From contig CALRAJ010000002.1 of assembly GCA_943350765.1 (NCBI GenBank), positions 72,951 to 136,950 on the forward strand: a stretch of 64,000 nt of DNA, written 5' to 3'. Positions 2,150 through 53,762 of the stretch are shown piece after piece. The position numbers and the translations under genes were made by a program. Source of the DNA: Candidatus Tayloriibacteriota bacterium (GTDB lineage Bacteria; Patescibacteriota; Minisyncoccia; Phycocordibacterales; PALSA-1337). Every line of letters begins with the position of its first letter. Positions within the stretch are counted from its first letter, which is position 1. The notes under the pieces were generated by a model that did not search any database, was not told the origin of the DNA, and saw only the letters and a list, made by a program, of their open reading frames with translations.

Positions 2150-2288
2150 GCAAATTATTAAATTTCTTTCTTAGCATATCTTTTAAATAGCACGAGTATT
2201 TCTTTGGTAAGAAATCTCTCAAGTCTCAGCTACCCGCTTCCGAAGTCTATTTAAAAGATACGCTTGCGACGAAATTTAATAATTTGCT
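2150..2288. mobile_element. MITE-like element copy 1 (subtype A core; perfect 18-bp TIR agcaaattattaaatttc)
   Basis: TIRs agcaaattattaaatttc / gaaatttaataatttgct; core gcacgagtatttctttggtaagaaatctctcaagtctcagctacccgcttccgaagtc is shared with the copies at 18157, 35029 and 53406. Confidence 0.75.
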
Positions 2289-2331
2289 ATGTTTTGTGAT
2301 GGTTGGTATGAAGGAGTGATGACTATTTTAA

Positions 2332-2375
2332 GCCACATTCAAAGGCTAAACAGGGTGTTTAGCCTTTGAATGTGG
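2332..2375. repeat. H-family hairpin variant (GGCTAAAC...GTTTAGCC)
   Basis: ccacattcaaaggctaaacagggtgtttagcctttgaatgtgg palindrome. Confidence 0.7.
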
Positions 2376-2580
2376 CTATATAGAGACATATTTAAAAAAT
2401 TGGCTTTAAACTGTAACTACCTATATAAAAACGGTGAATAAAGCAAGATCATGCTTATGATAATCAATACCGAAATAATGACCGAAACTACATTTAGTAC
2501 CTTTTTTGTTTTGTGATGAAATAGCATGGGTTTTATATCTTTTATGTTATCTTTTTGAATATGTAGTATAATATCATAAA

Positions 2581-2955
2581 ATGCTAGAATTTCAAGTAAA
2601 AAAAAGATTTAAAAGAATACTTTATTCTCGAGCGATGATCGTAATACTTATGATTGTTATTGTTTTTGCTATTAAAGCCACATGGAGTGTTTATAAAAAA
2701 CAGCAGACCAGCAGGATGAACCTAAATAGATTACAGCTGGAAATATCAGAATTGAAACAACGCGAAGATTATATAAAATCTGGTATTGATCGTCTTGGTA
2801 CGGATAAGGGGGTGGAAGAGGAGATTAGACAAAAGTTTAAGGTTGTCAAAGATGGTGAATCAATGTCGATACTTATCGATGATGAACAGGTCATGGCCAC
2901 TTCTTCCTCGCCAGAAAAAGGTTTTTGGTCTACAATTGCTGATGTGTTTCGGTAA
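2581..2955 (+). CDS. Septum formation initiator family protein (FtsB/DivIC-like): N-terminal TM plus coiled coil
   Basis: TM helix MIVILMIVIVFAI followed by a coiled-coil LQLEISELKQREDYI and an EEEIRQKFKVVKDGE motif typical of FtsB/DivIC. Confidence 0.5.
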   Translation: MLEFQVKKRFKRILYSRAMIVILMIVIVFAIKATWSVYKKQQTSRMNLNRLQLEISELKQREDYIKSGIDRLGTDKGVEEEIRQKFKVVKDGESMSILIDDEQVMATSSSPEKGFWSTIADVFR

Positions 2956-3008
2956 AATGTATATGATGGCCTAAAGCGGGCTTTGCTACGCCGAAGCTTT
3001 GAGCTATG

Positions 3009-3079
3009 GCGAGTGTAGTATAGTGGTAATACGTGTGCTTCCCAAGCATATGACGCGGGTCCGATTCCCGCCACTCGCA
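3009..3079 (+). tRNA. tRNA-Gly (anticodon CCC)
   Basis: Hand-folded cloverleaf: acceptor GCGAGTG/CACTCGC, D-stem GTAT/ATAC, anticodon stem TGTGC/GCATA with loop TTCCCAA, T-arm GCGGG-TCCGATT-CCCGC, discriminator A. Confidence 0.8.
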
Positions 3080-3125
3080 CAAAATGAGCGTCGAGAGGCG
3101 CTTTTTTGCTATACTTACTGTACCT

Positions 3126-4385
3126 ATGCCCCCGCAGTCTGAAATTAAAAAAGTACCAAAACCAAAAGTAATTCTCCATATGGATGGCGACGCTTTTTTT
3201 GTCGGTGTTGAAGTTGCTAAAAATCCAAAACTCAAGGGGTTGCCAGTAGTAACTGGTGAGGAGAGGGGGATAGTCTCGGCACTTTCGTATGAGGCAAAAG
3301 CACTCGGCGTGGTGCGTGGTATGCCAATATTTAAAATTAAAAAAGATTTCCCAAAAGTAATTATTCTACCCGGTGATTATGCCTCATATATTCGCTACTC
3401 GGCTATGATGTTTGATATTGTGCGTCGATATGTTGATGATGTGGAGGAATATAGTATTGACGAATGCTTTGCGGATCTCACTGGACTCGACCGACCATTA
3501 AAAATGACCTATCTGCAGATAGCCGAGAGGATTAAAAATGAAATAAATAAAGAACTACAGCTAAGTGTCTCTATTGGCGTTGCACCTACAAAAGTACTCG
3601 CCAAGGTAGCATCAAAGTGGGTAAAGCCAAATGGCCTGACCTCAATAGATATTAAAACCGCCCCAGATTTTCTCGCCAAAACACCTATAGAGAAAATCTG
3701 GGGTATTGGCCCGCAGACTTCAGAGTTTTTGAAAAGAAGATGTATAGATACCGCGCATGATTTTGTAAGTAAAGATATAGCTTGGGTAAAACACAACCTT
3801 TCAAAACCGTATGAGATAATCTGGCAGGAACTTTCTGGTGTATCCCTGATGAATATCGATCCAATAAAAAAGACCGTCTATTCCTCAATGCAGAAAACAA
3901 GGTCATTTCACCCCGCTACCAACGATAAAAAGTTTCTTCTGTCGCAGATTTCTAAACATGTGGAGGATGCGTGCACCAAAGCTCGGCATTTCCACCTAGT
4001 GCCGAAAAAGATATCTATTTTTCTCAAGGACAAAGATTTTAAATTTACCACTGTTTCGATTCATGTTCCGTCGCCGACCAACGCTCCGGAGATTTTGATT
4101 TCTCTTGCTAAAAAACAGTTTGATAAAATGCATGTTCGGGGGACACTCTATCGTACTACTGGCGTTGTGTTGCAAGATCTTATTTCGGGTTTAGTCTCGC
4201 AAAACGATTTGTTTGGCGGTACTGATGAGGCACACAAATTCGAACGCATACACGCGCAGATCGACTCTCTTGAAAATAAGTTTGGTCGGCATGTTGTCTA
4301 TCTCGCATCCACACACAATGCCCTGAAGCAAAAGAAGGTGGGTACGGATTCAGATGATTTGGATAGAAATTTGCTATTTCTGTAG
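3126..4385 (+). CDS. dinB: DNA polymerase IV (Y-family translesion polymerase)
   Basis: ILHMDGDAFFVGVE catalytic N-terminus, typical DinB length. The ORF-track start at 3084 abuts the tRNA; the ATG at 3126 is preferred. Confidence 0.9.
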   Translation: MPPQSEIKKVPKPKVILHMDGDAFFVGVEVAKNPKLKGLPVVTGEERGIVSALSYEAKALGVVRGMPIFKIKKDFPKVIILPGDYASYIRYSAMMFDIVRRYVDDVEEYSIDECFADLTGLDRPLKMTYLQIAERIKNEINKELQLSVSIGVAPTKVLAKVASKWVKPNGLTSIDIKTAPDFLAKTPIEKIWGIGPQTSEFLKRRCIDTAHDFVSKDIAWVKHNLSKPYEIIWQELSGVSLMNIDPIKKTVYSSMQKTRSFHPATNDKKFLLSQISKHVEDACTKARHFHLVPKKISIFLKDKDFKFTTVSIHVPSPTNAPEILISLAKKQFDKMHVRGTLYRTTGVVLQDLISGLVSQNDLFGGTDEAHKFERIHAQIDSLENKFGRHVVYLASTHNALKQKKVGTDSDDLDRNLLFL

Positions 4386-4450
4386 TTTGTGACAAAATGC
4401 CAACTAACATATTTTAACCTCGTTGGAGGATAAGGTGATATACTAGCAAA

Positions 4451-5149
4451 ATGAATGAATATGAAAAGAAATTGTCTGATGAGGCATTCCGTTGGGTTAA
4501 GGCAAATCATCGTAAAATTATAGAAGAGTTTGCTGGAAAAGCGGAGCATGTCGCTGATAATCAACCAATTACACTTTTTATGGCAGGATCTCCTGGAGCG
4601 GGTAAGACTGAGGTGTCCAAACGCCTCATTTCTCGTTTTATACAGAAACCAGTAAGAATTGATGCGGATGAAATTCGCGGAATATGCCCTGGTTATGTCG
4701 GATCAAATGCACACATATTTCAAAGAGCAGCTACTAAAGGGGTTCATATTCTCTATGATTATTCGCGAGAAAATAATTTGAATGTCATTTTGGACGGTAC
4801 ATTTGCATATGCAGATGAACAGAAAAATATACAGGGGTCATTAGATCGTCAGAGAAAAGTCGAAATCTATTTTGTGTATCAGGATCCTTCGCAAGCATGG
4901 GATTTTACAAAAAAACGTGAAGAAATTGAGTATAGAAAGGTTTCTAAAAAAGTTTTCATTGATGCTTTTATCAAATCTCGCGAAAATGTTAACCTTGTCA
5001 AAAGTTATTTCGGAGATCAAATCGAGCTCAACCTACTTATAAAAGATTTAACGAGTGATATTGAACAGCTGGAGCTTAATATACTCCTTGTTGATAGTTA
5101 TTTGAAGAAGGTGTATACTAGGTATGAATTGGAGACATTGCTTATATGA
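4451..5149 (+). CDS. Zeta-toxin-like P-loop kinase (AAA_33/zeta_toxin family)
   Basis: Walker A FMAGSPGAGKTE, a downstream IDADEIRG motif and an NVILDGTF (hhhDGT) motif characteristic of the zeta toxin/PezT fold. Confidence 0.55.
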   Translation: MNEYEKKLSDEAFRWVKANHRKIIEEFAGKAEHVADNQPITLFMAGSPGAGKTEVSKRLISRFIQKPVRIDADEIRGICPGYVGSNAHIFQRAATKGVHILYDYSRENNLNVILDGTFAYADEQKNIQGSLDRQRKVEIYFVYQDPSQAWDFTKKREEIEYRKVSKKVFIDAFIKSRENVNLVKSYFGDQIELNLLIKDLTSDIEQLELNILLVDSYLKKVYTRYELETLLI

Positions 5150-5337
5150 TTAATAAAATCAAGTCCTACTTAGGGATTAAAGAGATAAAGGAGCCAACGA
5201 CTGACTTTTCGGCGTTTTTTCATAATGCTTCTTCTGCCCAGAAAAAGAAGCTTCTAACCGAGGTTGTACGCGAAGCGAATAAGGATCAAAGAGCGGTTAT
5301 TGAGCGGTATAATCGGAGGACTACAAAGACCATCTAA
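5146..5337 (+). CDS. Small hypothetical protein (63 aa) with ATGA-overlapped start, possible partner of the upstream kinase
   Basis: Translationally coupled ORF; no recognisable domain. Confidence 0.3.
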   Translation: MINKIKSYLGIKEIKEPTTDFSAFFHNASSAQKKKLLTEVVREANKDQRAVIERYNRRTTKTI

Positions 5338-5380
5338 TCGGTGGTTTTTGTTTGGCAAAGAATTCCAACGGCTTAGTGGT

Positions 5381-5419
5381 TGAACGGCTCAACAGGGCTG
5401 TTGAGCCGTTCAAATGGCT
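5381..5419. repeat. H-family hairpin repeat
   Basis: gaacggctcaacagggctgttgagccgttcaaatggct. Confidence 0.8.
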
Positions 5420-5485
5420 TGGTTGAGAGGTTTTTAGAGTATGCTAAAAAGTGGCTATTTGGTGTAAATTTGCTATGATATTGAG

Positions 5486-6091
5486 ATGAATGAAATTGTC
5501 TATATTCTTATAAACGAAGCTATGCCAGGGTATACCAAAATTGGTATCACTACTGATTTGAAAGCTCGTCTGAAGCAATTAAGTAATACATCTGTTCCCG
5601 TTCCTTTTGAATGTTTTTTCGCAAAAAGAGTTAAAGATGCGAGGGCTATTGAGAATAGAATGCACGCTGCCTTTGCAAAGGATAGAGTTGACAGTGGAGC
5701 AGGAAGAGAATTTTTTATGATCCCCCCAGAACAAGCTGCGGCAGCATTGAGTATGGCAGAGGGAGAAGATATTCAAATTGATTCAGAAAAAACGGAACAA
5801 GAAAAGGTTGCAATCGCTGAAATCACAAGTAGACGCCCCGTTTTCAATTTTTCATTGGTTAATATAAATCCAGGTTCAACACTTCAGTTTTATATGGACG
5901 AGATAATTACTTGTACAGTCGTCGATTCAAGAAAGGTTGAATTTAATGGGAAAATCGTCTCGTTGTCCTATGCTGCTATGCAAGTATTGGAGTCAAAAGG
6001 TTTGCACTGGAAGGCTGTTTCTGGTCCCGGTATATGGATGTTTGAGGGTGAGACACTGTATGCGAGACGTATAAGGATGGAGGCTGAATAA
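5486..6091 (+). CDS. GIY-YIG superfamily protein: N-terminal T5orf172 domain plus C-terminal DUF4357-like domain
   Basis: VYILINEAMPGYTKIGITTDLKARLKQL ... GREFF matches T5orf172; C-terminal W...G..W....LYARRIR matches the DUF4357 pattern. Confidence 0.6.
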   Translation: MNEIVYILINEAMPGYTKIGITTDLKARLKQLSNTSVPVPFECFFAKRVKDARAIENRMHAAFAKDRVDSGAGREFFMIPPEQAAAALSMAEGEDIQIDSEKTEQEKVAIAEITSRRPVFNFSLVNINPGSTLQFYMDEIITCTVVDSRKVEFNGKIVSLSYAAMQVLESKGLHWKAVSGPGIWMFEGETLYARRIRMEAE

Positions 6092-6102
6092 TTGTAAGAC
6101 GA

Positions 6103-6729
6103 ATGACACCACAAGAAAGTTTCCCCGATGTCTTTCGTGTTATCCTAGATCTTTCTTCTACTATATCTAAGAAGATAGATGATTATAAAAATAATATTGA
6201 AAATAATCCCAGTATAAAGAGGGCTTTTTATAATATAGATTTTGTTTATATGCACTCTATTGTACTCGATATGGGAAAGCTACTTTCAGTAAATAATAAT
6301 GATAGGTCTGGATTAAGGGGGTTGGAAAAGTCATCACCAGATAAATTTAAAAAAGATATAAGGATATTTAGGGATAAATATAAGGATGTAATTGAAAAAA
6401 TAAAAAGCAATAGAAATAGGATAATTTCTCATGTAGATATAAGTGATGAAGGACATTTTTCTAAAATGGGTTTTTCTGAGAAAGAAGTAAATAAAAAAGT
6501 CACTGACCTCAATGATCACTTCACATTTTTGTATGGGTTGAATAAATCATTGGTAGAATCATCTATCGAACATTGGAATAAGTTAAGATCAGAGTCTATT
6601 AGGACTGAAAGATATAGTCCTTCAGATTTTTCTAAGGAAGTAGATATTTTCATAATAATGATTAGAGAAATAGTATCTATTTCGTATAAAATTAATGTGT
6701 GTTATTGTGAAAAAACAAGACTTAAGTAA
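6103..6729 (+). CDS. Hypothetical protein in an AT-rich segment; possible HEPN-like (R-x5-H motif RNRIISH)
   Basis: Local GC content is markedly lower than the flanks; an Rx4-6H motif is the only recognisable feature. Confidence 0.3.
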   Translation: MTPQESFPDVFRVILDLSSTISKKIDDYKNNIENNPSIKRAFYNIDFVYMHSIVLDMGKLLSVNNNDRSGLRGLEKSSPDKFKKDIRIFRDKYKDVIEKIKSNRNRIISHVDISDEGHFSKMGFSEKEVNKKVTDLNDHFTFLYGLNKSLVESSIEHWNKLRSESIRTERYSPSDFSKEVDIFIIMIREIVSISYKINVCYCEKTRLK

Positions 6730-6805
6730 TCAGATCGTTTTTTATGCAAAACTCTCTGTGCTATAATATAATCCCTACAAAGTAATTAAATAAATTAAAA
6801 CAAGT

Positions 6806-7039
6806 ATGAAAAAAGTTACGATATACTCGACCCCAACATGCCACTACTGTAATATGGCCAAGGATTTTTTTAAGGCAAATAAAATTATTTACACAGAATT
6901 GAATGTGGCGACTGATTTAGAAAAGCGGAAAGAGATGATTGAGAAGAGTGGGCAAATGGGTGTGCCAGTAATCGATATCGGCGGGGAGATCATGGTGGGT
7001 TTTGATCAGTCGGCGCTCTCGAAGGCTTTGGGGATGTAA
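6806..7039 (+). CDS. Glutaredoxin-like protein (NrdH/Grx family, CxxC)
   Basis: YSTPTCHYCNMAKDFF active-site motif, 77 aa thioredoxin fold. Confidence 0.85.
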   Translation: MKKVTIYSTPTCHYCNMAKDFFKANKIIYTELNVATDLEKRKEMIEKSGQMGVPVIDIGGEIMVGFDQSALSKALGM

Positions 7040-7048
7040 AGGGGGGAT

Positions 7049-7090: not shown

Positions 7091-7140
7091 AGCAAAAAAT
7101 GTTATAGTCTTGTAGCAGAGCTTGTGCATTCTGTATCTAT

Positions 7141-7245
7141 TCTCCCTTTGTAAAGGGAGCACCGCCAGTACTCTGGCGTGGAGGGATTTGAAATCCAAAT
7201 CCCTCGGCTTGAAGCCTGCTCCCTTTAGAAAAGGGAGAACAATGC
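7141..7245 (+). repeat. Multi-hairpin structured element R, copy 1 (immediately upstream of tRNA-Arg)
   Basis: Hairpins CTCCCTTT-gtaa-AAGGGAG, GCCAG-tact-CTGGC, AGGGATTTG-aaatc-CAAATCCCT, GGCTT-ga-AGCC and CTCCCTTT-agaa-AAGGGAG; homologous copy at 62966-63062. Confidence 0.6.
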
Positions 7246-10085: not shown

Positions 10086-10153
10086 AAAGAGTTTTTTAAA
10101 AATGGATATTTTGTGTAAAAAGAGGTAAATAGCCTTGATTAGAGGCTTGTTTT

Positions 10154-10193
10154 GCTTCAAAGGCTCAACGGTACACCGTTGAGCCTTTGAAGC
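10154..10193. repeat. H-family hairpin repeat
   Basis: gcttcaaaggctcaacggtacaccgttgagcctttgaagc. Confidence 0.8.
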
Positions 10194-10245
10194 AAAAATA
10201 CTCACACTGCCTTTGTTTTTTTTATTTTTATGCTATAATCACTCT

Positions 10246-16140: not shown

Positions 16141-16144
16141 TTTG

Positions 16145-16216
16145 TGACCCCACGGAGAGTCGAACTCCGCTTAACAGATTGAAAACCTGCTGTCCTAACC
16201 GATAGACGATGGGGCC
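16145..16216 (-). tRNA. tRNA-Glu (anticodon UUC)
   Basis: Reverse complement folds: GGCCCCA-TC-GTCT-ATCGGTTA-GGAC, anticodon loop TTTTCAA, T-arm CGGAG-TTCGACT-CTCCG, acceptor TGGGGTC-A. Confidence 0.8.
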
Positions 16217-16270: not shown

Positions 16271-17338
16271 ATGCTTGAGCGGTTTAGTATTATATTGTAT
16301 ACTTACATTATATTTAAATATCAAATGATGTCAGTATATATAGAATCAGGTCATGAAATCAGTAATTTTTTAATACAAGCAAAATCGTCTGTCGGTTCGT
16401 GGGAAAATCTTTCTAAAAAAGCGCCTGTATCCTCAAGGACACTTCGTCATTGGTATAATGGTAAGTCTTATATATCACTGAATGTTCTTGAGCTACTAAG
16501 TGACCAGCTCAAAATAGCTTTGCCTCCATATAAGCTGGTTGATTTTTTGGATCAAAAAAGAATTGCAGGCAAAAAAGGTGGTTTGGCGCGCGTTGCTCTC
16601 TATGGAAATCCAGGAACAATCGCAGGAAGATTGCGGGGTGGATTACAATCGATAAAGGTTCAAGCAAAGAATCCCGCTTCACCATTTGTGCAAAAAAAGA
16701 TTGCTATACCAGCATATTCATCTAAGTTGGCAGAATTTGTCGGGATTTTATTGGGGGATGGTCATGTTGACGAAAGACAAATTTCTATATCGATAGGAGG
16801 TGATGAGTTTGAATATACCAAATATATCTCGGATTTAAGTTTCAAACTATTTAATTATCGGCCGTCTATAAAAAAGAAAAAAGGAGTAGAAATGTATACT
16901 ATGGTTTTTTCTCGAACAGCCCTCGTTGACTATATTAAGGGGATTGGCCTAATCGATCATCATAAAGTAAGGTCGCAAAGCGAAGTCCCTTTATGGGTAC
17001 AGAGTAGTAAGAGTTATTCAAAGGCCTGTCTTCGAGGGTTGTTTGACACAGACGGTTCTTTTTTCATCGATAGACATTTAATAAAAAAGTCGTTATATTA
17101 TAATCCGGGTGTCGCGTTTACGAACTACTCATTACCGATACTTAACTTTTTCTATTCAACATTAGTTGTTTTGGGATTTCATCCAACAATATCGAATAAT
17201 AGAAATGTACTTTTGAGACGAGTCAGTGAGGTGCATCTCTTTTTTAAAGTTATTAAAAGTAACAACCCAAAGCATCTTGGAAAGTTTAAAGGATTTGTAG
17301 ATAATTATAAAAAAGGAAAGGTACCGAAGAGGTTATAA
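16271..17338 (+). CDS. Free-standing LAGLIDADG homing endonuclease (two LAGLIDADG motifs) with an N-terminal extension
   Basis: LAEFVGILLGDGHV and LRGLFDTDGSF motifs. The 3' end of the ORF overlaps tRNA-Ser by ~24 nt; the true start may be the internal Met at ~16325. Confidence 0.8.
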   Translation: MLERFSIILYTYIIFKYQMMSVYIESGHEISNFLIQAKSSVGSWENLSKKAPVSSRTLRHWYNGKSYISLNVLELLSDQLKIALPPYKLVDFLDQKRIAGKKGGLARVALYGNPGTIAGRLRGGLQSIKVQAKNPASPFVQKKIAIPAYSSKLAEFVGILLGDGHVDERQISISIGGDEFEYTKYISDLSFKLFNYRPSIKKKKGVEMYTMVFSRTALVDYIKGIGLIDHHKVRSQSEVPLWVQSSKSYSKACLRGLFDTDGSFFIDRHLIKKSLYYNPGVAFTNYSLPILNFFYSTLVVLGFHPTISNNRNVLLRRVSEVHLFFKVIKSNNPKHLGKFKGFVDNYKKGKVPKRL

Positions 17339-17404
17339 CGGCGCCGATTCGAAATCGGATGGCCGGGTCAAACCGGCACGAGGGTTCGAATCCCTCCCTT
17401 TCCG
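17315..17404 (+). tRNA. tRNA-Ser (anticodon CGA), type II with a long variable arm
   Basis: Acceptor GGAAAGG/CCTTTCC, long D-loop, anticodon loop TTCGAAA, variable arm GGCCGGG-TCAAA-CCGGC, T-arm GAGGG-TTCGAAT-CCCTC, discriminator G. Confidence 0.7.
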
Positions 17405-17436
17405 CCTGAGCAAAAACCTGCTATTCTGTGGATCAT

Positions 17437-17572: not shown

Positions 17573-18142
17573 ATGTTTCTAGATATTGGAATAGGTTTAA
17601 TGGTTTCAAAGATTTTGATTAAAACTATGGGCTTTTATGCACCCACAGTTTTTATTATTCTTGGTGTGGTTTTCTCATTATTACCAGATATTGATTTTAT
17701 TTTTCATCTATTAAAAAAGAAAAGACTGAACGAATATAACCACAAACACCGTGACTATTTGCATTACCCGATACTGTATATTGGCGGTGGTTTTATTTTA
17801 TTTCTATTTGTTGATGTAAAAATAGCAATTTTGTTTGCTGTTGTTTCAGCTCTACATTTTTTACACGATAGTGTTGGTATCGGTTGGGGAGTAAAGTGGC
17901 TGTATCCATTCTCAAAAAATAGCTTTATGTTTTGCTATAAAATTAGAGAAAAAGGAGAGGGTTTGAGACGTGTTTTCCCATCACAACTTTATTACTCATG
18001 GACGGAGGAGCAAGTAGAACAAAAATCCTTACTATATGGTGATAAGGACTGGGTAAAAAATATTTACCTTAAATTTAGTTGGTATGCTTTTATTGAGTAT
18101 ATAGGTTTTCTGATAGGATTAGGGTTTCTTTTTTGGCTATAA
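17573..18142 (+). CDS. Membrane-bound metal-dependent hydrolase-like protein (DUF457/YdjM-like)
   Basis: Multi-TM protein with LHFLHDS...GIGWG motifs. Confidence 0.4.
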   Translation: MFLDIGIGLMVSKILIKTMGFYAPTVFIILGVVFSLLPDIDFIFHLLKKKRLNEYNHKHRDYLHYPILYIGGGFILFLFVDVKIAILFAVVSALHFLHDSVGIGWGVKWLYPFSKNSFMFCYKIREKGEGLRRVFPSQLYYSWTEEQVEQKSLLYGDKDWVKNIYLKFSWYAFIEYIGFLIGLGFLFWL

Positions 18143-18156
18143 TTTTTTGTGTAATT

Positions 18157-18300
18157 ACCCCGAATTACGAAATACCTTTCTAGGCATATCATTTTGAAAG
18201 CACGAGTATTTCTTTGGTAAGAAATCTCTCAAGTCTCAGCTACCCGCTTCCGAAGTCTTTCAAAAAGATACACCTGCGACGGTATTTTGTAATTCGGGGT
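18157..18300. mobile_element. MITE-like element copy 2 (subtype A)
   Basis: TIRs accccgaattacgaaatacc / ggtattttgtaattcggggt (19/20); same core as copy 1. Confidence 0.8.
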
Positions 18301-18302
18301 AC

Positions 18303-19030
18303 TTACTTTAAATCTAAATCTCTTCTGAAATTCAGTTCCTTTTTTTCAAAGATACTTGGTTTACCAAGTTTACCCCAGTAAGAAAGCTGTTTCCTCATAT
18401 CCGATAGATTTTTCATAGGATGCGAGTGTCTGACTGCAAATGATGGGTCAATCATTATTATGTAACCTGCGTCTCTGGCCCATTTTGCCCATTCACCATC
18501 TTCACCGCCTAGTCCGTACTTTTCGTCAAAATGATGTTTTTCCCAAAGAGATTTTCTGATGGCACAGTTGGTTGCCCCGAGTACCCCCATTTCATCCACA
18601 ACCATCCTTTTACCACGAAGCAGTAGTTTTAAATACCAGTAATTGTAAAGAAAAACTCAAGTAGGTGAGCATTTTTTCTAGGGCGACATGGCCCATAAAA
18701 TCCTGCCATTTTTGGGTTTTCGAAATTCTTAACCACAGTTTGAAGCCACTTATCCGAAGTGGGTAGGGAATGTCCCACGGTCAAAACCACATACTCGTAG
18801 GATGAGTTTTCTATACCAAGGTTCATTGATTTTGGATAGGAAAAGGCGTTTTTAGGCAGAGTGATGACTTTTGCATCAAAGCTTTCTGCGAGCTCCTTTG
18901 TCCCATCGGTGGACTCATTATCTACCACAATAATTTCGAAAGGCACACTACATTTTTGCTTTTTAAGCATAAACAAAAGCTTTTGCAGGCTATCCTTTTC
19001 GTTGAGTGTTCGTATTACGATTGATATCAT
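18303..19030 (-). pseudogene. Family-2 glycosyltransferase split by a frameshift into two ORFs (18629-19030 and 18303-18605)
   Basis: N-terminal half IVIRTLNE...VVDNESTDGT (GT-A fold, DxD region) and C-terminal half continue in different reading frames across ~18605-18630. Confidence 0.6.
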
Positions 19031-26371: not shown

Positions 26372-26473
26372 AGTGGAGTTTATCCTATCATGGAGTAATG
26401 GAAAGTGCAAACGGCGTTTGGTGCGGAGTCCTTTTAAAGATACACCTGCGACAGCATTTCATGATCCTTTGTT

Positions 26474-26512
26474 GAACGGCTCAACAGGGCTGTTGAGCCG
26501 TTCAAATGGCTC
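26474..26512. repeat. H-family hairpin repeat
   Basis: gaacggctcaacagggctgttgagccgttcaaatggctc. Confidence 0.8.
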
Positions 26513-26562
26513 TACATAGGCTCAGCAAAGAATCAGCCAAAGGTGATTTTGTGGTAAAAAAG

Positions 26563-26602
26563 TTTCAAAGGCTCAACGGTGTACACTGTTGAGCCTTTGA
26601 AG
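26563..26602. repeat. H-family hairpin repeat
   Basis: tttcaaaggctcaacggtgtacactgttgagcctttgaag. Confidence 0.8.
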
Positions 26603-26640
26603 TGTTTAGTCCCGAAATTTTCAGTAGAAAATTTCGGGGA
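26603..26640. repeat. P-family palindrome (CCCGAAATTTTC-agtag-GAAAATTTCGGG)
   Basis: Related to the palindromes at 36168, 43500 and 48913. Confidence 0.7.
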
Positions 26641-26683: not shown

Positions 26684-26772
26684 TTTATTGCAATTGTGGA
26701 GAATACCCCGACGGCTTGCCGCGGGGATGAATCCGCAAGAATGAAGATGAAGTCGGCGGAGCCGACACTCCT
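26684..26772 (+). ncRNA. Structured element E copy 1 (candidate small RNA or cis element); near-identical copy at 48782-48870
   Basis: ~85 nt sharing about 95% identity with copy 2; hairpins CCCCGaCGG-cttg-CCGcGGGG and GTCGGC-gga-GCCGAC. Confidence 0.45.
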
Positions 26773-26886
26773 GCAACAAAGTTTACCCTGTCGTCTCGCC
26801 TAATACCCCGCCGAGGTAATCCGAGGGAATAGCTTGCTACAGGGATAGGACGAGGCTAAACTTTATTGTAACTTAGTCAAAACTTT

Positions 26887-30434: not shown

Positions 30435-30478
30435 TACCACCCCCAGCTAACTAATCCGAACTATGCTATACTATAGGC

Positions 30479-30985
30479 ATGTTAATACCATTAGAAGACA
30501 AGCATAGTTACCTTGAACTCAAGGCTTTGCTTGTAAAAAACAATGATGAGCTGATGAAAACTCGTATTAAAATACTATTATTAATTAAGCAGAGTTTTAG
30601 TCGAAAAGATATTAGTGAGAGATTATCAGTAAATATAGATACCGTTACTGATGTAGTCAAAAGATACAATAAAAATGGAATTGATAGTTTAAAAACTAAT
30701 AAAGGAGGTAGACCGGGAGGGAATCCTGTTTGGGACAGTAGAATATTTGAAGAATTAATTAAAGATATTGATAAACAGGATCAGTATTGGTCAATACCCA
30801 TAATGCAAGAATGGATACAGAAGCATTACAAAAAATCAATTCCAGAACAGACTGTGTGGTATCGAATGAATAAAATGAATAATTTTTCCTACAAATCTTC
30901 TAGACCACACCCGTATTTAGGGAACATAAAAAAGCAGGAGAATTTTAAAAAAAAGGGTTATCGAATATTATCAAAAACTCATTGA
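30479..30985 (+). CDS. IS630 transposase N-terminal HTH part (orfA)
   Basis: Helix-turn-helix region; stops at a TGA overlapped by the orfB frame. Confidence 0.8.
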   Translation: MLIPLEDKHSYLELKALLVKNNDELMKTRIKILLLIKQSFSRKDISERLSVNIDTVTDVVKRYNKNGIDSLKTNKGGRPGGNPVWDSRIFEELIKDIDKQDQYWSIPIMQEWIQKHYKKSIPEQTVWYRMNKMNNFSYKSSRPHPYLGNIKKQENFKKKGYRILSKTH

Positions 30986-31500
30986 TATATTTTACTGATG
31001 AAATGCGTTACGGACTCATGTCTAACTTTAGAAGAAGTTGGAGCAGGATAGGTACAAGATCAATACTTCCTCAAAAACAAGGTTATGAAAACAGCTATTT
31101 GTTCACAGCCATACAACCAACAACTGGTGAAAATTTTTCGTTACTTTCGTTTGATGAGATGTCCACAAATACAGAATTAATATTTTTAACAGAACTCAAG
31201 AAGTTACACCCAGACAAACAGGTTTATGTGGTTATGGATAACGCACCATGTCACAAACCAAAAGTCCTACATATTTTAGAAGGTCTTTCCATAATTTACT
31301 TGCCACCGTATTCGCCAGAATTAAATCCTGTTGAAAGATACTTTGAGGAAATGCGAAGAGCCACTGCAAATCAAATATTTACAACTCTAGAAGAATTAGA
31401 AACAAGACTAACTACCGTTATCAACTCTTGGTCAAATGAAATGGTTAAGAAATTAACCTGCTATGGTTGGATAAAAGAACAAGTCGGATTGGTTAGTTAG
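30982..31500 (+). CDS. IS630 transposase DDE catalytic part (orfB, no ATG; -1 frame relative to orfA)
   Basis: DDE triad in IYFTDE, VVMDNAPCH and PELNPVERYF. Frame begins with TTG inside a TCAAAAACTC stretch, consistent with a programmed -1 frameshift or a decaying copy. Confidence 0.8.
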   Translation: MIYFTDEMRYGLMSNFRRSWSRIGTRSILPQKQGYENSYLFTAIQPTTGENFSLLSFDEMSTNTELIFLTELKKLHPDKQVYVVMDNAPCHKPKVLHILEGLSIIYLPPYSPELNPVERYFEEMRRATANQIFTTLEELETRLTTVINSWSNEMVKKLTCYGWIKEQVGLVS

Positions 31501-31533
31501 GGATGGTATAATTTGGTAAAATCAAGCTCTAAT

Positions 31534-34086: not shown

Positions 34087-34175
34087 GAACGGCTCAAGGA
34101 GCGGAGGCGACGAAGATAACGAATCTTGCTAGATTCGTTATAAGGCTTTTGAAGCCTGTTGAGCCGTTCAAATGG
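34087..34175. repeat. H-family hairpin with a ~50-nt internal insertion
   Basis: gaacggctcaa[ggagcgg...aacgaatcttgctagattcgtt...gaagcct]gttgagccgttcaaatggct. Confidence 0.7.
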
Positions 34176-34227
34176 CTTGTTTGAGGCTCCGTACAGAATA
34201 TACTAAAGGTGTATTTTAGACCAAAAA

Positions 34228-34268
34228 CCCTTCAAAGGCTCAACCAGCATGGTTGAGCCTTTGAAGGG
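34228..34268. repeat. H-family hairpin repeat
   Basis: cccttcaaaggctcaaccagcatggttgagcctttgaaggg. Confidence 0.8.
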
Positions 34269-34968: not shown

Positions 34969-35028
34969 TTTTTTGGTGAAATGATTTTAAGATTTATGAT
35001 ACTCGAATATTAAAGCTACCTACCCAAA

Positions 35029-35168
35029 ATTACAAAATACCGTCGCAAGCGTATCTTTTAAATAGACTTCGGAGGCGGGTAGCTGAGACTTGAGAGATTT
35101 CTTACCAAAGAAATACTCGTGCTATTTAAAAGATATGCTAAGAAAGGTGTTTTATAATTTGGGGTACC
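35029..35168. mobile_element. MITE-like element copy 3 (subtype A, inverted orientation)
   Basis: TIRs acccaaaattacaaaatacc / ggtgttttataatttggggt; core is the reverse complement of copies 1 and 2. Confidence 0.8.
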
Positions 35169-36167: not shown

Positions 36168-36201
36168 ACTCCCAGATTTTTGAGTACAAAAATCTGGGAG
36201 T
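36168..36201. promoter_or_regulatory. Perfect 15-bp-arm palindrome upstream of giant protein G1 (operator-like, P family)
   Basis: ACTCCCAGATTTTTG-agtac-AAAAATCTGGGAGT. Confidence 0.5.
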
Positions 36202-36254
36202 TATCCACAGGACTACTGTGGAAGTACTATACGAATTTAATGTATACTAATGAT

Positions 36255-43428: not shown

Positions 43429-43499
43429 CGAGTTCACTACTTGTCACTTTACATCACCCGCACAACTTCAAGTTGGCGGTTTTTATTTTTTAATTTCAT

Positions 43500-43535
43500 A
43501 ATCCCCCGATTTTTGTACTCAAAAATCGGGGGATT
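43500..43535. promoter_or_regulatory. Perfect palindrome upstream of the surface protein gene (P family)
   Basis: AATCCCCCGATTTTTG-tactc-AAAAATCGGGGGATT, preceded by a T-rich tract. Confidence 0.5.
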
Positions 43536-48752: not shown

Positions 48753-48781
48753 TCCGTCGCACAGGGTTGTGCAGCGGATTT

Positions 48782-48870
48782 TTTATTGCAATTGTGGATT
48801 CATCCCCGACGGCTTGCCGCGGGGATGAATCCGCAAGAATGAGGATGAAGTCGGCGGAGCCGACACTACT
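48782..48870 (+). ncRNA. Structured element E copy 2, bracketed by two terminator hairpins
   Basis: Preceded by gcacagggttgtgc + T-tract (48755-48785) and followed by terminator 48913-48960. Confidence 0.5.
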
Positions 48871-48912
48871 ACATCCGCTCAATTCTGATTGAGCGAGCAG
48901 TAGTCGTATGAC

Positions 48913-48960
48913 GATTCCCCCGAAATTGCAGTAGCAATTTCGGGGGAATCGGATTTTTTT
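48913..48960 (+). terminator. Rho-independent terminator (P-family palindrome plus T-tract)
   Basis: gattcccccgaaattgcagtagcaatttcgggggaatc followed by ggattttttt. Confidence 0.8.
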
Positions 48961-48971
48961 CTGTAAAAAAC

Positions 48972-49028
48972 ATAACGGCTCAACAGAGCCATTCTCATCG
49001 GCTAAACCCCGTGTTTAGCCGATGATAC
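48972..49028. repeat. Degenerate H-family pair (GGCTCAAC half plus GGCTAAAC...GTTTAGCC hairpin)
   Basis: acggctcaacagagccat ... atcggctaaaccccgtgtttagccgatga. Confidence 0.6.
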
Positions 49029-49127
49029 TTTTGGGTAAAAAAACATGGTGCCAGAGGTATATACGCCATGGCGTATATACCTCTGGTTTTTTGTAATTCT
49101 GTTTATAATGTGCTACTATATCTATGT

Positions 49128-50654
49128 ATGAAAAAAATAATAACATCTATCGTCGGCGTCTTTGTGTTATCAATAATGCTGTTTCCTCTGGTATCTACCG
49201 CTCAAATCAATCCTCCACCAGAGGATGTAGTATTGCAGGCACAGATAGCATCTCTTTTGGCTCAGATTAAACGCCTACAGGAGCAACTCGCACAGTTGCA
49301 GGGCGGTTCGGGACAGTTTTGTCATGATTTTAATACAAATCTAAAAATATACTCTAGTGGCGATGAGGTTACCGCACTTCAGACGGCTCTTACGAAAGAG
49401 GGTATTACGCTCAATATTTCTGGTTCATTCGATAGATTTACTGAAACTGCTGTCAAATGGTTTCAGGAAAAATATAGTGGTGAAGTACTGACTCCATCAG
49501 GATTAACACGAGGTACAGGCTTTGTGGGTGTTAGTACTCGTGCAAAACTCAATCAGCTTTATAGGTGTGGTAACAGTGGCTCTTCTCTCCGTGTCATCTC
49601 ACCAAACGGTGGCGAGTCATGGCAGTTGGGAACTACGCAGACTATCAGGTGGAATGCTCCGCAGTATTTTAGAGCAACTTACGCAGATATTTCTTTGGTG
49701 CCTTATTATCCAGATAGGGTGTGTACAGGTACAGTGTGTCCAATGGAAGCTCAACAGTCAATGCGGTATCCATATCAAGGACCGTACACGATTGCTAACA
49801 GTGTAAGTATCAATCAGAATTATTATAGCTGGCCTGTGGGTAGGTATATCATAGGCTATGTGGCGCATGGCGAGGTATCAAATCCGACAGGTATTGTTCC
49901 TAATGGTCAATACAAAATAAAAATCTGCGAAACTGGGACATCAAACTGTGATACTAGCGATAATAATTTTACTATCACTGATAGTCCCCAAGCGAGTATT
50001 TTTCCAGCTGTACTAAATCCAGCTGTAGTTTCAGAATACTATCGTCAGGAGCTTACTATAGACAACGCTTCATCAGCAGGTTTATATCTAGCAGCAGGTG
50101 AGCTTCCTCCTGGGCTTCAGATCATATCAATGATTCCGTCTTGTGCTTATCCACCTGCTGGACAAGTAGCCAATACTTGCTCTGGACAATCTACCATTCT
50201 CGGTACGCCAACCACAGCAGGTTACTATACTTTCACTATCTCTAACAGAAACCCAAGTGCATCGAGAACATATACCCTCAGAGTTAGTCCATCAAACAAC
50301 AACAATCGCACTATCAGTGTCATCTCACCAAACGGCGGTGAAACTTGGAGTATGGGATCTGCTCGCCAAATCATCTGGAATTATTTAAATGCTACTTTAG
50401 ATAGTAGGGTAGATATGTATTTACTAACCAATTATGCCTGCCCAACAAATTATTCTCCGACAGAAATCGTTTGTGTGCCAAATGGGGAAAGAGTCCTCGA
50501 TAAAGATATTTCTGCCAGTGCAATCTATAATTGGGTCGTCGGTACAGATACAGTAGGCAATTATGTACCAACAGGAAGCTACAAGGTTAAGATTTGTGTA
50601 GCTGGTACTTCGGATTGTGATACGAGTAATGCTTCGTTCACTATTACAAATTAG
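49128..50654 (+). CDS. Secreted protein with a peptidoglycan-binding domain and two Kre9/KNH-like Ig domains
   Basis: Signal peptide; PG_binding_1-like GDEVTALQTAL...AVKWFQ; repeats ISPNGGESWQLGTTQTIRW and ISPNGGETWSMGSARQIIW. Confidence 0.55.
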   Translation: MKKIITSIVGVFVLSIMLFPLVSTAQINPPPEDVVLQAQIASLLAQIKRLQEQLAQLQGGSGQFCHDFNTNLKIYSSGDEVTALQTALTKEGITLNISGSFDRFTETAVKWFQEKYSGEVLTPSGLTRGTGFVGVSTRAKLNQLYRCGNSGSSLRVISPNGGESWQLGTTQTIRWNAPQYFRATYADISLVPYYPDRVCTGTVCPMEAQQSMRYPYQGPYTIANSVSINQNYYSWPVGRYIIGYVAHGEVSNPTGIVPNGQYKIKICETGTSNCDTSDNNFTITDSPQASIFPAVLNPAVVSEYYRQELTIDNASSAGLYLAAGELPPGLQIISMIPSCAYPPAGQVANTCSGQSTILGTPTTAGYYTFTISNRNPSASRTYTLRVSPSNNNNRTISVISPNGGETWSMGSARQIIWNYLNATLDSRVDMYLLTNYACPTNYSPTEIVCVPNGERVLDKDISASAIYNWVVGTDTVGNYVPTGSYKVKICVAGTSDCDTSNASFTITN

Positions 50655-50697
50655 GTTACTGGAAAGACGCTTTTTTCCTGTAATTTTTTTCAAGAGC

Positions 50698-50839
50698 ATC
50701 AAATTACGAAATACTGTCGCAGGCGTATCTTTTAAAGGGGGTTCGCAGGCGGGTAGCCGAGATTTCAGGAAAAAATTAGTAAATTTTTATCCGTACCCTT
50801 TAAAAGATATGCCAAGAAAAGTATTTTGTAATTTGGGGT
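50698..50839. mobile_element. MITE-like element copy 4 (subtype B)
   Basis: TIR aaattacgaaatact / agtattttgtaatttgggg; core gggggttcgcaggcgggtagccgagatttcagg. Confidence 0.75.
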
Positions 50840-50906
50840 AAGAAAATTAAAAAGTATCGTATCGTATTTGTAATCCAGTCAGCGTTTTGTTATACTTAGG
50901 AGCATT

Positions 50907-53402
50907 ATGGCAAAGGAAAAAGATGACAAAATAGTCCCTGAAAATGAGGGGGTAGTACCCGAAGCTGTCCGTGGAGTGGTCAATAGAAATATCACTACCG
51001 AAATGCGTGAGTCGTACCTAGACTACGCCATGTCGGTGATCACTTCTCGTGCTTTGCCCGATGTCAGAGATGGTCTAAAGCCCGTGCATCGACGCATACT
51101 TTTTGCGATGAATGAAATGGGTCTCACTTCGTCGTCGCGTTTTCGAAAGTCAGCAACTGTAGTGGGAGAAGTACTAGGTAAATACCACCCACACGGTGAT
51201 GTAGCTGTATACGAGTCCATGGTCAAAATGGCTCAGACTTTTTCTTTTAGATATCCACTTATACTCGGTCAGGGAAACTTCGGCTCTATAGACGGAGACG
51301 GTGCTGCAGCACACAGATATACTGAGGCAAAGATGTCTCGACTTTCCAGCGAGCTTCTAAAAGATATCGAAAAAGATACGGTAGATTTTCGACCAAACTA
51401 CGATAATACCAAAAAAGAGCCGACCGTACTTCCTTCAGCTGTACCCGCTCTGCTTTTAAACGGTACTCTCGGTATTGCTGTCGGTATGGCAACAAATATC
51501 CCTCCCCACAATCTAAAAGAAGTGGTAGATGCGACTATCCACATGATTGAAAACAAAGACGCATCTACGGAAGATTTATTACAGTTTATAAAAGGTCCAG
51601 ATTTCCCAACAGGTGCTGTGATCTATGGCGAAAAAGACATTCAGCACGCCTACTCGACAGGTCGTGGAGGTATTGTCGTGCGTGGCGAGGCAGAGGTTAT
51701 TGAAGACAAAAAGGAAAACTTTCAAATCATCATTACTTCTATTCCTTATCGTGTAAACAAAGCCGAGCTGATTATGCGTATTGCTGACCTAGTACGAGAA
51801 AAGGAAATCGACGGTATCAAGGGACTTAGAGATGAGTCTAGCAAAGACATTCGCATCGTAATCGACCTAAAAGGTGGGGCGCATCCACAAAAAGTTTTAA
51901 ACTATATCTACAAACACACCCAGCTCGAGGAAAAGTTTCACCTCAATGTAGTGGCACTTGTTGATGGTGTACCAAAAACGCTTTCACTCAAATCAATACT
52001 AGAGGAGTTTGTATCCCATCGAGTGATCGTGGTTCGTCGTCGTACCCAGTTTGATTTAAACAAAGCCGAGGAGAGGGAGCACATTTTACTTGGTTTGAAA
52101 AAGGCACTAGACCATATCGATGCTATTATCAAGCTTATCCGTGCATCCAAAGACGCTCCAGAGGCTCATAAAAATCTGATGAAGGAGTTCAAGTTTTCAG
52201 ACAAACAAGCTACTGCTATCCTAGAAATGCGTTTGCAAAAGCTGGCTGGACTTGAGCGTAAAAAGATTGAGGACGAGCTAATAGAAGTGCAAGCTCTGAT
52301 TATCGCACTCAAGGAGATCCTAGGTAGTCCTAAAAAGATTTTAAGTATTATCAAAGACGAGCTTCGGGAGATCGCTACCAAATACGGTGATGATAGACGC
52401 ACAAAGGTAGTCAAGAGAGGTGTGCAGGCGATGTCTGATGAGGATCTTATACCCGATGTTGACTCAGTGCTAGTTTTGACCTCGGGTGGATATATCAAAC
52501 GCACTGCCCCAGAGGAATATCGCAGACAAAAGCGTGGGGGAGTAGGTGTGGTTGATCTGGATACAAAAGAGGAGGATTTTATTACTCATATTGTCAATGC
52601 CAACACTCACGCCGATCTACTTTTCTTTACAAACAAAGGCAAGGCGTACCAGATCAAAATGCACGAAATTCCCGAAGGGAAACGCGCTACCAAAGGCAAG
52701 TCAGTAGTAAACTTTATTCAAATCACTGATGATGAGCGGGTTACCTCTATCTTGCCGATGTCAAAAGAGGTAAAGAAAAGCGGACTAAGCCTCTTTATGG
52801 TTACTAAAAATGGTGTAGGTAAAAAGGTAAATGCTGAGTCTTTCCATGATGTTCGACGAAGTGGTCTGATAGCTATCGGTCTCGACTCAGGAGATAGTCT
52901 GGTCTCAGTGCGGTTTGTGGAAAAAGGTGATGATCTAGTGCTGGCTTCGAGTGAGGGTCAATCTATTCGTTTCAAGGAGTCTGATATTCGAGAGATGGGT
53001 CGTACTGCTATGGGTGTGATCGCGATGCGACTGGAAAAGGATGATATGGTGATTGGAGCCGAAGTGGTCAAAAAGGACATGAAAAATCCAGCCCTACTGG
53101 TAATCATGGCCAACGGCTATGGTAAGCAGACTGAGCTTTCTGAATACAAGACCCAAAAGCGTGGTGGCTCTGGTGTGCTGACTGCAAAGATAACCAGTAA
53201 AACAGGAAAAGTTATCACTTCTAGTGTGGTAGAAAGCGGGGAGTCTGTCGAGGAAGTGGCGGAGCTGGTGGCTATTTCAAAAAAGAGTCAGGTGATTCGT
53301 TGTGATATAAAGGAGATACCAGTCCTAGGTCGTCAGACTCAAGGTGTGCGTATTATGCGACTTCGAGAAGGGGATTCTCTAGCGAGTGCGGTGTGTCTGT
53401 AA
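50907..53402 (+). CDS. gyrA: DNA gyrase subunit A
   Basis: [28 protein letters not shown] active-site region (catalytic Tyr context), C-terminal beta-pinwheel repeats. Confidence 0.95.
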
Positions 53403-53405
53403 TAG

Positions 53406-53536
53406 ATTAAAATACCTTTCTGGGTATATTTTTTTGAAAGCACGAGTATTTTTCTGGTGAAAAATCTCTCAAGTCTCAGCTACCCGCTTCCGAAGTCTTT
53501 CAAAAAGATATACCCAGAAAGGTATTTTAATTCGGT
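53406..53536. mobile_element. MITE-like element copy 5 (subtype A)
   Basis: TIR aaaatacctttctgggtatat / atatacccagaaaggtatttt (perfect); subtype A core. Confidence 0.8.
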
Positions 53537-53620
53537 ATAAATTAAGTTTTATCTATATGTCTTTTCAGAAATATAGTCTCCAGCAAAGGCATATTTTGAC
53601 TTGATTGCTTATGTGGTATA

Positions 53621-53762
53621 CCCCAAATTACGAAATACTGTCGCAGGCGTATCTTTTAATGGGGGTTCGCAGGCGGGTAGCCGAGATTTCAGGAATTTTC
53701 TACCAAGAAAATATCCGTACCCTTTAAAAGATATACCCAGAAAGGTATTTCGTAATTTGGGG
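53621..53762. mobile_element. MITE-like element copy 6 (subtype B)
   Basis: Perfect TIR ccccaaattacgaaatac / gtatttcgtaatttgggg; core matches copy 4. Confidence 0.8.

Follow-up and report, generated by a model that had tools for sequence, protein, structure and literature searches.

Six copies of a palindromic repeat in a Parcubacteria-type genome and the apparently undescribed family to which they belong

Several kinds of small palindromic repeats have been described in bacteria, and they offer the closest points of comparison for a hairpin-forming element present in six copies in a 64,000-nucleotide stretch of contig CALRAJ010000002.1 (assembly GCA_943350765.1, Candidatus Tayloriibacteriota bacterium), which is called the window throughout. 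Rickettsia palindromic elements (RPE) are palindromes of ~100-150 bp without coding capacity or a known transposase; several families occur per genome, and copies are found both in intergenic regions and in frame within protein genes, to which they add a tolerated peptide. ERIC, Correia (CREE), RUP, and BOX elements are imperfect palindromes of 100-150 bp that lie in either orientation, in intergenic regions or after genes, can form long hairpins as RNA or DNA, and fall into subtypes; the mobilising enzyme is mostly unknown, and TA dinucleotides flank Correia, RUP, and ERIC. REP and REPIN sequences with their RAYT transposases are, in contrast, simple hairpins of 20-40 nt, defined by structure, marked by a tetranucleotide tag at the foot, and thought to act as single-stranded DNA (ssDNA).

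The element of the window shares the size, the hairpin form, the subtypes, the variable orientation, and the intergenic or in-frame placement of the first two groups. It is best described as a new family of the RPE/ERIC/Correia kind and not as a classical MITE (a miniature transposable element with inverted repeats). Our reading, held at a probability of about 50%, is that the six copies belong to a large uncatalogued palindromic repeat family of Patescibacteria (Parcubacteria/Paceibacteria), which would be non-autonomous selfish DNA maintained at the DNA level. The likeness to RPE is meant as one of kind and makes no claim on homology; the host group is another, and the core is here far more conserved than the arms, which are partly copied from flanking DNA. 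ERIC, Correia, RUP, and BOX are conserved within a genus as whole elements or at their termini, whereas the present family has variable termini and a core conserved in numerous families within a very deep bacterial group.

When the six copies are aligned in one register (copies 3, 4, and 6 reverse-complemented), mean column identity is 79%, and the 21-mer TCTCRGCTACCCGCYTSCGAA is exact in all of them, against an expectation of 0.00 from 100 shuffles. A covariance model of 102 family members finds exactly these six copies, which score 85-92 bits; other matches in the window reach no more than ~20 bits, and the best of them are plain hairpins. An independent assembly of the same genome (L101) contains the three copies that flank gyrA. 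The six positions proposed in a first-pass annotation are confirmed. A short-read assembly (L102) ends ~90 nt either side of gyrA, as expected for repeats. All six copies occupy intergenic spacers, three on each strand, and a truncated seventh accompanies them:

Copy 1: 2147..2290, plus strand; subtype A core, covariance-model match 2171-2264, full hairpin.
Copy 2: 18151..18306, plus strand; subtype A core, model match 18181-18274.
Copy 3: 35021..35168, minus strand; subtype A core, model match 35048-35141.
Copy 4: 50696..50841, minus strand; subtype B core, model match 50722-50815, upstream of gyrA.
Copy 5: 53403..53536, plus strand; subtype A core, model match 53421-53514.
Copy 6: 53618..53765, minus strand; subtype B core, model match 53646-53739, inverted relative to copy 5.
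Truncated seventh copy: ~26418..26465, plus strand; nothing remains but the right arm and the core's 3' end (..GGAGTCCTTTTAAAGATACACCTGCGACAGCATTTC..).

Copy 1 begins 4 nt past the stop codon of lepA (2143), and copy 5 begins 4 nt past that of gyrA. Copies 4 and 6 stand upstream of genes, and copy 3 lies in the divergent promoter spacer between a methyltransferase gene and an MBL-fold gene. Copy 2 separates convergent genes: a YdjM-like open reading frame (ORF) with its stop at 18142, and a split GT2 glycosyltransferase gene whose 3' fragment has its stop at 18303. This GT2 gene (18303-19030, minus strand) is broken into ORFs 18629-19030, which holds the GT2 domain, and 18303-18605, in different frames, and copy 2 touches its stop; the earlier remark that one copy abuts a frameshifted glycosyltransferase was correct. 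The close pair reported 3' of gyrA, copies 5 and 6, was also recovered, with a spacing of 84 nt. Across the family, close pairs are inverted to each other and combine different sub-families, an arrangement seen in all six pairs less than 150 nt apart (copies 5 and 6 included) and in 11 of the 12 pairs less than 1 kb apart.

Each window copy forms a long hairpin on either strand, with folding z-scores of -6.3 to -11. Its complementary arms are 35-50 nt long, 80-97% complementary, and contain an internal loop, a description that replaces the terminal inverted repeats (TIRs) of 18-20 bp first proposed. The outer 20 bp of copy 1 pair perfectly, yet both arms are unlike those of the other copies; folding thus agrees with the different perfect outer stem that had been noticed around its subtype A core. 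In copy 5, the arms are 97% complementary over 35 nt and the internal loop has been lost: where the loop stood, the right arm is now complementary to the left arm's version of it. One terminus of copy 4 is degenerate, with GCAT in place of CCCC.

Over the whole family, the element consists of a long variable stem, P1, which closes an asymmetric three-way junction of ~60 nt made of P2, P3, and conserved joining strands. On the C-strand, defined as the strand reading ..AGCACG..TCTCRGCTACCCGC.., the consensus order is P1, YAC, P2, (T)CTC, 2-3 variable bases, (T)CTC, P3, T-S-CGAAG-Y, and the other strand of P1. P2 has a 3-bp base, then a bulged T and a 7-bp helix closed by a T-R-N-T loop, and P3 is a GC hairpin of 3-4 bp with the consensus GGC-TACCC-GCC. 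The typical element spans ~85-180 bp; measured by anchored arm alignment, total length has a median of ~118 nt and a range of 60-180 nt. The core is the unit that is conserved and inherited, and the outer stems differ among copies and lineages. Both internal helices can be followed in copy 2:

P2 of copy 2: 18204..18228, plus strand; GAG-T-ATTTCTT-TGGT-AAGAAAT-CTC, with 3 bp, the bulged T, the 7-bp hairpin, and its T-R-N-T loop.
Conserved 21-mer of copy 2: 18234..18254, plus strand; holds the P3 hairpin AGC-TACCC-GCT (18238-18248) and the flanking junction strands.

Covariation carries this structure. Mutual information singles out exactly the proposed pairs, and in an independent MAFFT alignment 86% of cells pair, compared with 60% after shuffling and 43-57% when the partners are slid; P2 is 97% paired there, with double changes at 9 of its 10 pairs. 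The model-fitted alignment of 121 copies is 93% paired overall and 98% paired in P2, and all 10 P2 pairs show double changes. Over both alignments, the proposed pairs are 86-93% paired, compared with ~59% in shuffles and 42-57% for slid partners, and the observed covariation score was reached by none of 500 shuffles. The two subtypes of the first-pass annotation differ in just this manner: the base of P2 is GAG/CTC in subtype A and GGA/TCC in subtype B, P3 is AGC/GCT in one and GGC/GCC in the other, and the inner part of P1 is also compensated. The two are therefore one structure with compensatory changes and not separate types. At the boundary of P1 and the junction, one position covaries without Watson-Crick pairing (C:T 35, T:C 30, A:G 13). 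Many copies share an asymmetric internal loop in P1, whose orientation to the core is reversed between L006 and L005, two copies of the same genome. A kissing interaction between the P2 and P3 loops was considered and dropped, as the P2 loop varies without a matching change in P3. As a separate observation, intergenic hairpins of the form CCCCCGAAAATCTGCTGATTTTCGGGGG occur at 36171-36204 and 43498-43531, and also in L103-L108; in the loop (CTGCTG or CTACTG) and in the A/T-rich inner stem they are similar to the P2 hairpin of the element.

The family extends well beyond the window. The 21-mer core is present in at least 100 blocks of genome contigs; among the matches listed, nearly all are metagenome-assembled genomes of Patescibacteria, and the host bins named there are Nomura-, Yanofsky-, Zambryski-, Vogel-, and Taylorbacteria, Paceibacterota, and bins labelled Saccharibacteria (a label that is unconfirmed). 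The covariance model confirmed 97 exact-core loci, to which ~20 further copies with divergent cores can be added; in these, P3 is a covarying 4-bp hairpin (GCGC-CGTC-GCGC, GGCC-CGAC-GGCC, CCGC/GCGG, ACAC/GTGT, or GCTC/GAGC). Three matches in GC-rich contigs from outside the Candidate Phyla Radiation (CPR) were set aside as chance: the remainder of the motif is missing from them, and the model does not detect them. No match to the core fell in viral contigs, and a phage origin is thus not supported. The true LepA and GyrA proteins encoded beside copies in other genomes are ~69-75% identical to those of the window, so the family spans at least a class-level group.

No existing description was found to cover it. 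Against Rfam, the whole window yields tRNAs only at gathering thresholds, and the region of copies 5 and 6, searched at E<=10, yields only generic matches to long, miRNA-like hairpins, far below threshold. To our knowledge, neither strand resembles the cores of the hammerhead, twister, twister-sister, pistol, hatchet, or hairpin ribozymes. The core sequence, sought on both strands and in DNA and RNA alphabets, was not found in the searchable literature, where the combination of CPR with MITEs, palindromic elements, or RNA motifs also returned nothing relevant; a 2024 survey of prokaryotic MITEs does not mention Patescibacteria. Judged by Rfam 15 and the literature that can be searched, the family is apparently undescribed.

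A compensated structure of this kind could also be expected of RNA, and the principal rival to our reading holds that the copies are structured non-coding RNA genes or cis-acting RNA, such as a protein-binding RNA, a processing or stability element, or an unrecognised self-cleaving ribozyme within a long hairpin; the functional RNA would then be the three-way-junction core. The first-pass annotation had offered a structured RNA as its alternative. The very strong covariation in P1, P2, and P3 supports this part of the proposal, together with the conservation of the hairpin loops, the bulged U, and the junction strands, the non-Watson-Crick covariation at the junction (C:U vs U:C), and the extreme conservation of the core across lineages. 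Template switching in DNA would, however, produce the same covariation. The folding z-scores of -6 to -11 point the same way, with the fold of the G-rich strand somewhat more stable in five of the six window copies, and so do the orthologous copies with compensatory changes of L007 and L030. The nature of the pairs and the placement of the copies speak for DNA instead. G-U pairs are not enriched on either strand: the P2 cells comprise 978 Watson-Crick pairs, 7 G·T, 11 A·C, and 23 other mismatches, and wobble pairs are no commoner than other mismatches whichever strand is read, whereas functional RNAs favour them. A wobble excess on the G-rich strand suggested by a crude count (108 vs 67) was not upheld by the aligned columns in P2, P3, and inner P1. 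The element has no Rfam match, even at E<=10, and no promoter or terminator consensus or terminator-like T run within it. Its orientation to flanking genes is random (C-strand sense 31, other strand 22, convergent 16, divergent 9), near-identical cores lie both ways round in the same coding sequence, and its presence differs between close relatives. DNA-level pairing is favoured because there is no wobble excess, gene orientation is random, and the arms have been corrected against each other, as in copy 5, where the right arm was overwritten by the complement of the left, and in copy 1, where the outer stem is perfect though changed. On balance we judge a functional RNA unlikely, while taking it as the most serious of the alternatives.

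The behaviour of the element as an insertion is clearest in the gene for RNase R. In ELA422, an element with a palindrome of 120 nt lies in frame within this gene, and the encoded protein has 699 aa, compared with the usual 640-650 aa, and keeps all its domains; this recalls the tolerated peptides of RPE. The RNase R genes of L085, L110, and L111 carry 102-108 extra nt in frame at one site; when 14 CPR RNase R proteins are aligned, only P0121, P0125, and P0130 show an insert there. Scanned with the covariance model, the DNA of P0125 (L110) contains the element on the minus strand at 64.8 bits, that of P0130 (L111) contains it on the plus strand at 75.5 bits, and that of P0124 (L112) contains none; L113 and L114 are likewise empty at the RNase R site. 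In sequence, P0130 resembles the empty P0124 (81% identity) more than it does P0125 (71.5%). Even so, the cores of L110 and L111 are identical at 61 of 62 positions and stand in opposite orientation in the gene, so that either the core was flipped in place by recombination between the arms or the same site was hit twice. None of the RNase R insertions shows a clear target-site duplication.

The insert of L111 also reveals the source of part of its stem. Its 102 nt are made up of a 9-bp inner stem, the core, the second half of that stem, and 22 nt that repeat upstream codons in inverted form; these codons read K-I-S-G-E-E-L-S and are homologous to K-N-S-G-K-E-F-S in the empty allele. The outer stem is therefore partly made from the target flank. 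Two further findings fit this: in 14 of 100 copies the stem overlaps the 3' end of the upstream gene, and in the Parcubacteria genome SLM_LV1_02b-J04 each copy has its own long, nearly perfect stem. In the same genome (L036, L048, L088), inverted copies are interleaved with paralogous genes for secreted or pilin-like proteins (~240-370 aa), so that three elements enclose two genes in regular alternation, which suggests a segmental duplication involving the repeats. Further lineage-specific, in-frame inserts of 15-30 residues occupy other RNase R loops (P0122, P0130, P0140, P0144, P0162) and may represent other palindromic elements.

Comparison with close relatives shows gain and loss at the level of individual spacers. 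L103, L104, L106, and L108, whose GyrA proteins are 90-92% identical to that of the window and whose gene order is conserved, have no copy in the 10-14 kb around gyrA. In one spacer that contains no copy in the window, L103 bears two family members inverted to each other, and L104 and L108 carry another hairpin family there, the third described below. L017 and L030 share an element that is almost identical along its whole length, stems too, with different genes around it, and copy number varies greatly between relatives.

Other repeats share these spacers. A second long-hairpin family follows directly after the gyrA stop in L104 (8503-8620), L106 (4320-4440), and L108 (8506-8670); its core reads ..TTCCGTxTxxTCCCGCG-hairpin-TTGGTCRCAAxxCTCAxCAGC.., and its stems include the gyrA stop codon and are wholly different among the three genomes, yet complementary. 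A third palindromic family, AAATCCCTCGGC..GCCTGCTCCCTTTAGAAAAGGGAGAA, is located in the window at ~7140-7245, just upstream of tRNA-Arg (7251), and at ~62960-63065, as well as in L104 (4036-4230) and L108 (4236-4440). Paired GC-rich hairpins AACGGCTCAACnnnnnGTTGAGCCGTT and GCTTCAAAGGCTCAACGGnACACCGTTGAGCCTTTGAAG stand after genes at 151-303, 5380-5448, 10150-10207, 26472-26617, 34141-34244, and 53805-53845; hairpins of this type also occur in relatives and may be local terminators or another repeat family. A GC-rich repeat of 92 nt, 91% identical between 26684-26775 and 48782-48873, has internal hairpins CCCCGACGGCTTGCCGCGGGG.. and GTCGGCGGAGCCGAC and no Rfam match.

The ends of the element bear on its possible mobilisation as a classical MITE, that is, in trans by a TIR-binding DDE transposase, here of the IS630/Tc1-mariner type, which duplicates TA. 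TA is found at both ends of copies 2, 3, and 6, at the right ends of copies 4 and 5, and at the related copy L049; the termini CCCCRAATTACRAAAT are common to the copies of this lineage and in part to distant ones. The window also holds a single TA-flanked IS630-family insertion sequence (IS) at 30435-31508, with 25-bp imperfect inverted repeats TACCAYCCCYARCTAACYAATCCGA and two ORFs, HTH (30479-30985) and DDE_3 (30982-31500), that overlap in different frames and suggest a programmed frameshift or a pseudogene. These features would suit such an origin, as would the small, non-coding, multi-copy, and insertion-polymorphic character of the family. The IS repeats, however, do not match the ends of the element and occur nowhere else in the window, so that the sole transposase of the window has unrelated ends and no autonomous partner with matching TIRs was found there. 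TA is self-complementary and inseparable from a longer stem, as in copy 2, whose palindrome runs 7 nt beyond TA, and TA..TA ends are present in only 2 of 100 family members. Hairpin ends taken from minimum-free-energy folds over-extend the stems and are unreliable; by the better method, anchored arm alignment, no consistent target-site duplication is seen across the family, and the TA at most window copies is indistinguishable from the palindrome itself. The core is more conserved than the termini, and the stems differ per copy, as in SLM_LV1_02b-J04.

The search for a partner protein comprised Pfam scans of 53 window ORFs and, for the neighbours of ~100 copies, the clustering of 312 proteins by similarity only. 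Apart from the IS630 transposase, the scanned ORFs include no mobile-element enzyme, Y1_Tnp/HUH among those sought, and the clustered neighbours show no enriched transposase or other gene family, only housekeeping proteins. The MITE-like label of the first-pass annotation is consequently justified insofar as the element is small, non-coding, multi-copy, and inverted-repeat and behaves as an insertion, but not in the classical sense, as its termini vary, its core is conserved, and it has no matching transposase. We consider a classical MITE improbable.

We regard as equally improbable an affinity to REP/REPIN or to IS200/IS605-derived (PATE) elements, in which ssDNA would be moved by a Y1/HUH transposase (RAYT or TnpA) that reads the folded core and perhaps nicks the P3 loop. 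The pairing is purely Watson-Crick, the stems conserve structure and not sequence, and such movement does not require a target-site duplication. GTAG and CGTC are the tags of two REP super-families according to PMC3733652, and the P3 loops of the main type, which read GGGTA|G on one strand, contain GTAG, while CGTC is seen in divergent types. In the present family, however, these tetranucleotides lie in a loop and not at the foot of the palindrome, and the three-way junction has no counterpart in REPs. The window copies, three per strand, show no orientation bias although the GC skew does not change sign. A search of the window for RAYT genes found none, Y1_Tnp/HUH is missing from the 53 ORFs scanned with Pfam, and no such gene turned up among the neighbours that were clustered by similarity. 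Integron attC sites, retrons, TIGR arrays, tRNA-like structures, and terminators were also considered and dropped, given the dispersed distribution in both orientations and the lack of an adjacent reverse transcriptase or integrase and of a T run.

The selfish palindromic family that we favour would act and persist as folded ssDNA at the replication fork. Perfect hairpins are known to arise when replication switches template at quasi-palindromes (PMC8794818, PMC7202029), and template switching explains perfect copy-specific arms, one-step compensatory changes, and outward stem growth. Within a strand, it would keep the arms in perfect Watson-Crick register and lengthen the stem by inverted copying of the adjoining flank, while recombination between arms could flip the core. 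As a mutational process, template switching leaves the conserved core and its spread unexplained. New copies would probably arise by copy-in, either through template switching to a donor copy or through a trans-acting enzyme, and cut-and-paste by a terminus-binding transposase is unlikely. The near-invariance of the core would reflect a conserved host or trans-acting factor that reads the folded shape and its loops.

A bolder proposal makes the core itself the agent. It would be a new self-propagating three-way-junction module, of ssDNA or RNA, that spreads without an element-encoded or terminus-binding transposase, copies itself to new sites, builds its stem from the target flank, and stays near-invariant through a conserved catalytic or recognition activity; a new ribozyme- or DNAzyme-like fold and a substrate of a universal host enzyme are examples of what it might be. 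We hold this to be doubtful, although not so improbable as the transposase-based schemes.

Several observations weigh against the selfish-DNA interpretation. Nothing found accounts for why a selfish hairpin should keep a 60-nt asymmetric core near-invariant, and no partner protein was found in the window ORFs or the clustered neighbours. The argument from wobble pairs is strong but not decisive, since template-switch correction could erase G-U pairs even in a real RNA, and the conserved bulged T, loops, and junction strands are also expected of a functional RNA. In the RNase R gene of L110, the arms also resemble the usual arm motifs of the family, which makes the direction of copying ambiguous, and the TA flanks together with the IS630 transposase leave a small chance of classical mobilisation in this genome. 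Copies turn up repeatedly downstream of lepA and of gyrA, in 3 genomes each, which is much more often than ~100 random picks among ~700 genes would give; the lepA association rests on 4 loci, not 6, as two members of the 'LepA' cluster are other GTPases (28-33% identity). Finally, L007 and L030 have a copy at the same place, in the order 100-aa ORF, element, prfA, although their RF1 proteins are only 81% identical; the stems have diverged, and a change in P2 is compensated, from GCA/UGC to GUA/UAC. The expectation that a conserved RNA would sit at orthologous positions with compensatory substitutions thus describes some copies elsewhere, but the gyrA copies of the window are not orthologous. 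Turnover coexists with long retention or insertion hot spots.

Retention at orthologous sites and recurrence by housekeeping genes could indicate a host function instead of selfishness. One form of this idea is a DNA site beneficial to the host, either a cruciform or hairpin to which a protein of the nucleoid, of replication, of recombination, or of DNA uptake binds, or a barrier to transcription from both sides that stands behind genes in a compact genome. The location of copies right after stop codons and between convergent genes, their recurrence beside the same housekeeping genes in different genomes, and the conservation of the core whatever its orientation accord with it. The same sites in close relatives nevertheless lack copies and hold other hairpin families, copy number varies greatly among those relatives, no terminator-like T run is present, and insertion within a coding sequence is hard to reconcile with such a role; we rate this as the least probable of the explanations considered. 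Between these alternatives, the selfish palindromic family remains our preferred reading.

The window itself is part of a Parcubacteria-type CPR genome. Its G+C content is ~40%, the GC skew keeps one sign throughout, and it encodes 10 tRNAs and, by Pfam scans of its ORFs, housekeeping genes that include lepA, murC-like, a valS/ileS-type tRNA ligase, tsaD, ftsZ, ftsA, ybeY, pth, rpsA-like, gyrA, and infB. The relatives identified by GyrA are labelled Parcubacteria, Taylorbacteria, or Patescibacteria, the nearest being 90-92% identical, FW305_bin.8 among them. A 355-aa ORF with a LAGLIDADG_3 domain (16271-17338) lies between tRNA-Glu (16144-16216) and tRNA-Ser (17315-17406), overlaps the start of the latter, and may be a homing-endonuclease remnant. 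The stretch 4451-6091 encodes a Zeta-toxin-like kinase (4451-5149) and, after it, a T5orf172/MUG113 (GIY-YIG-like) protein (5486-6091); the pair is flanked by repeat hairpins and may form a small island with a mobile or defence role. Small T4SS-pilin-like genes (PF18895 in the annotation of relatives) stand in a row at 55712-57543; this row is conserved 3' of gyrA in all relatives and contains an internal 85-nt repeat (56767-56851 and 57346-57430).

Patescibacteria genomes are among the smallest and most streamlined of bacteria, yet they host this hairpin family, which makes up ~1.4% of the length of the window, where at least two further repeat families are also present. For genome annotation, the family provides a handle on sequences that break assemblies (as in L102), create spurious ORFs, and lengthen proteins such as RNase R, and it offers a marker for strain-level variation in organisms that cannot be cultured. 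The combination of a deeply conserved internal core, free stems partly copied from the flank, and possible flipping in place falls outside the standard models of MITEs, REPs, and RNA motifs. It brings two questions within reach of a test: by what route palindromic repeats that lack a transposase spread, and what conserved factor recognises the core.

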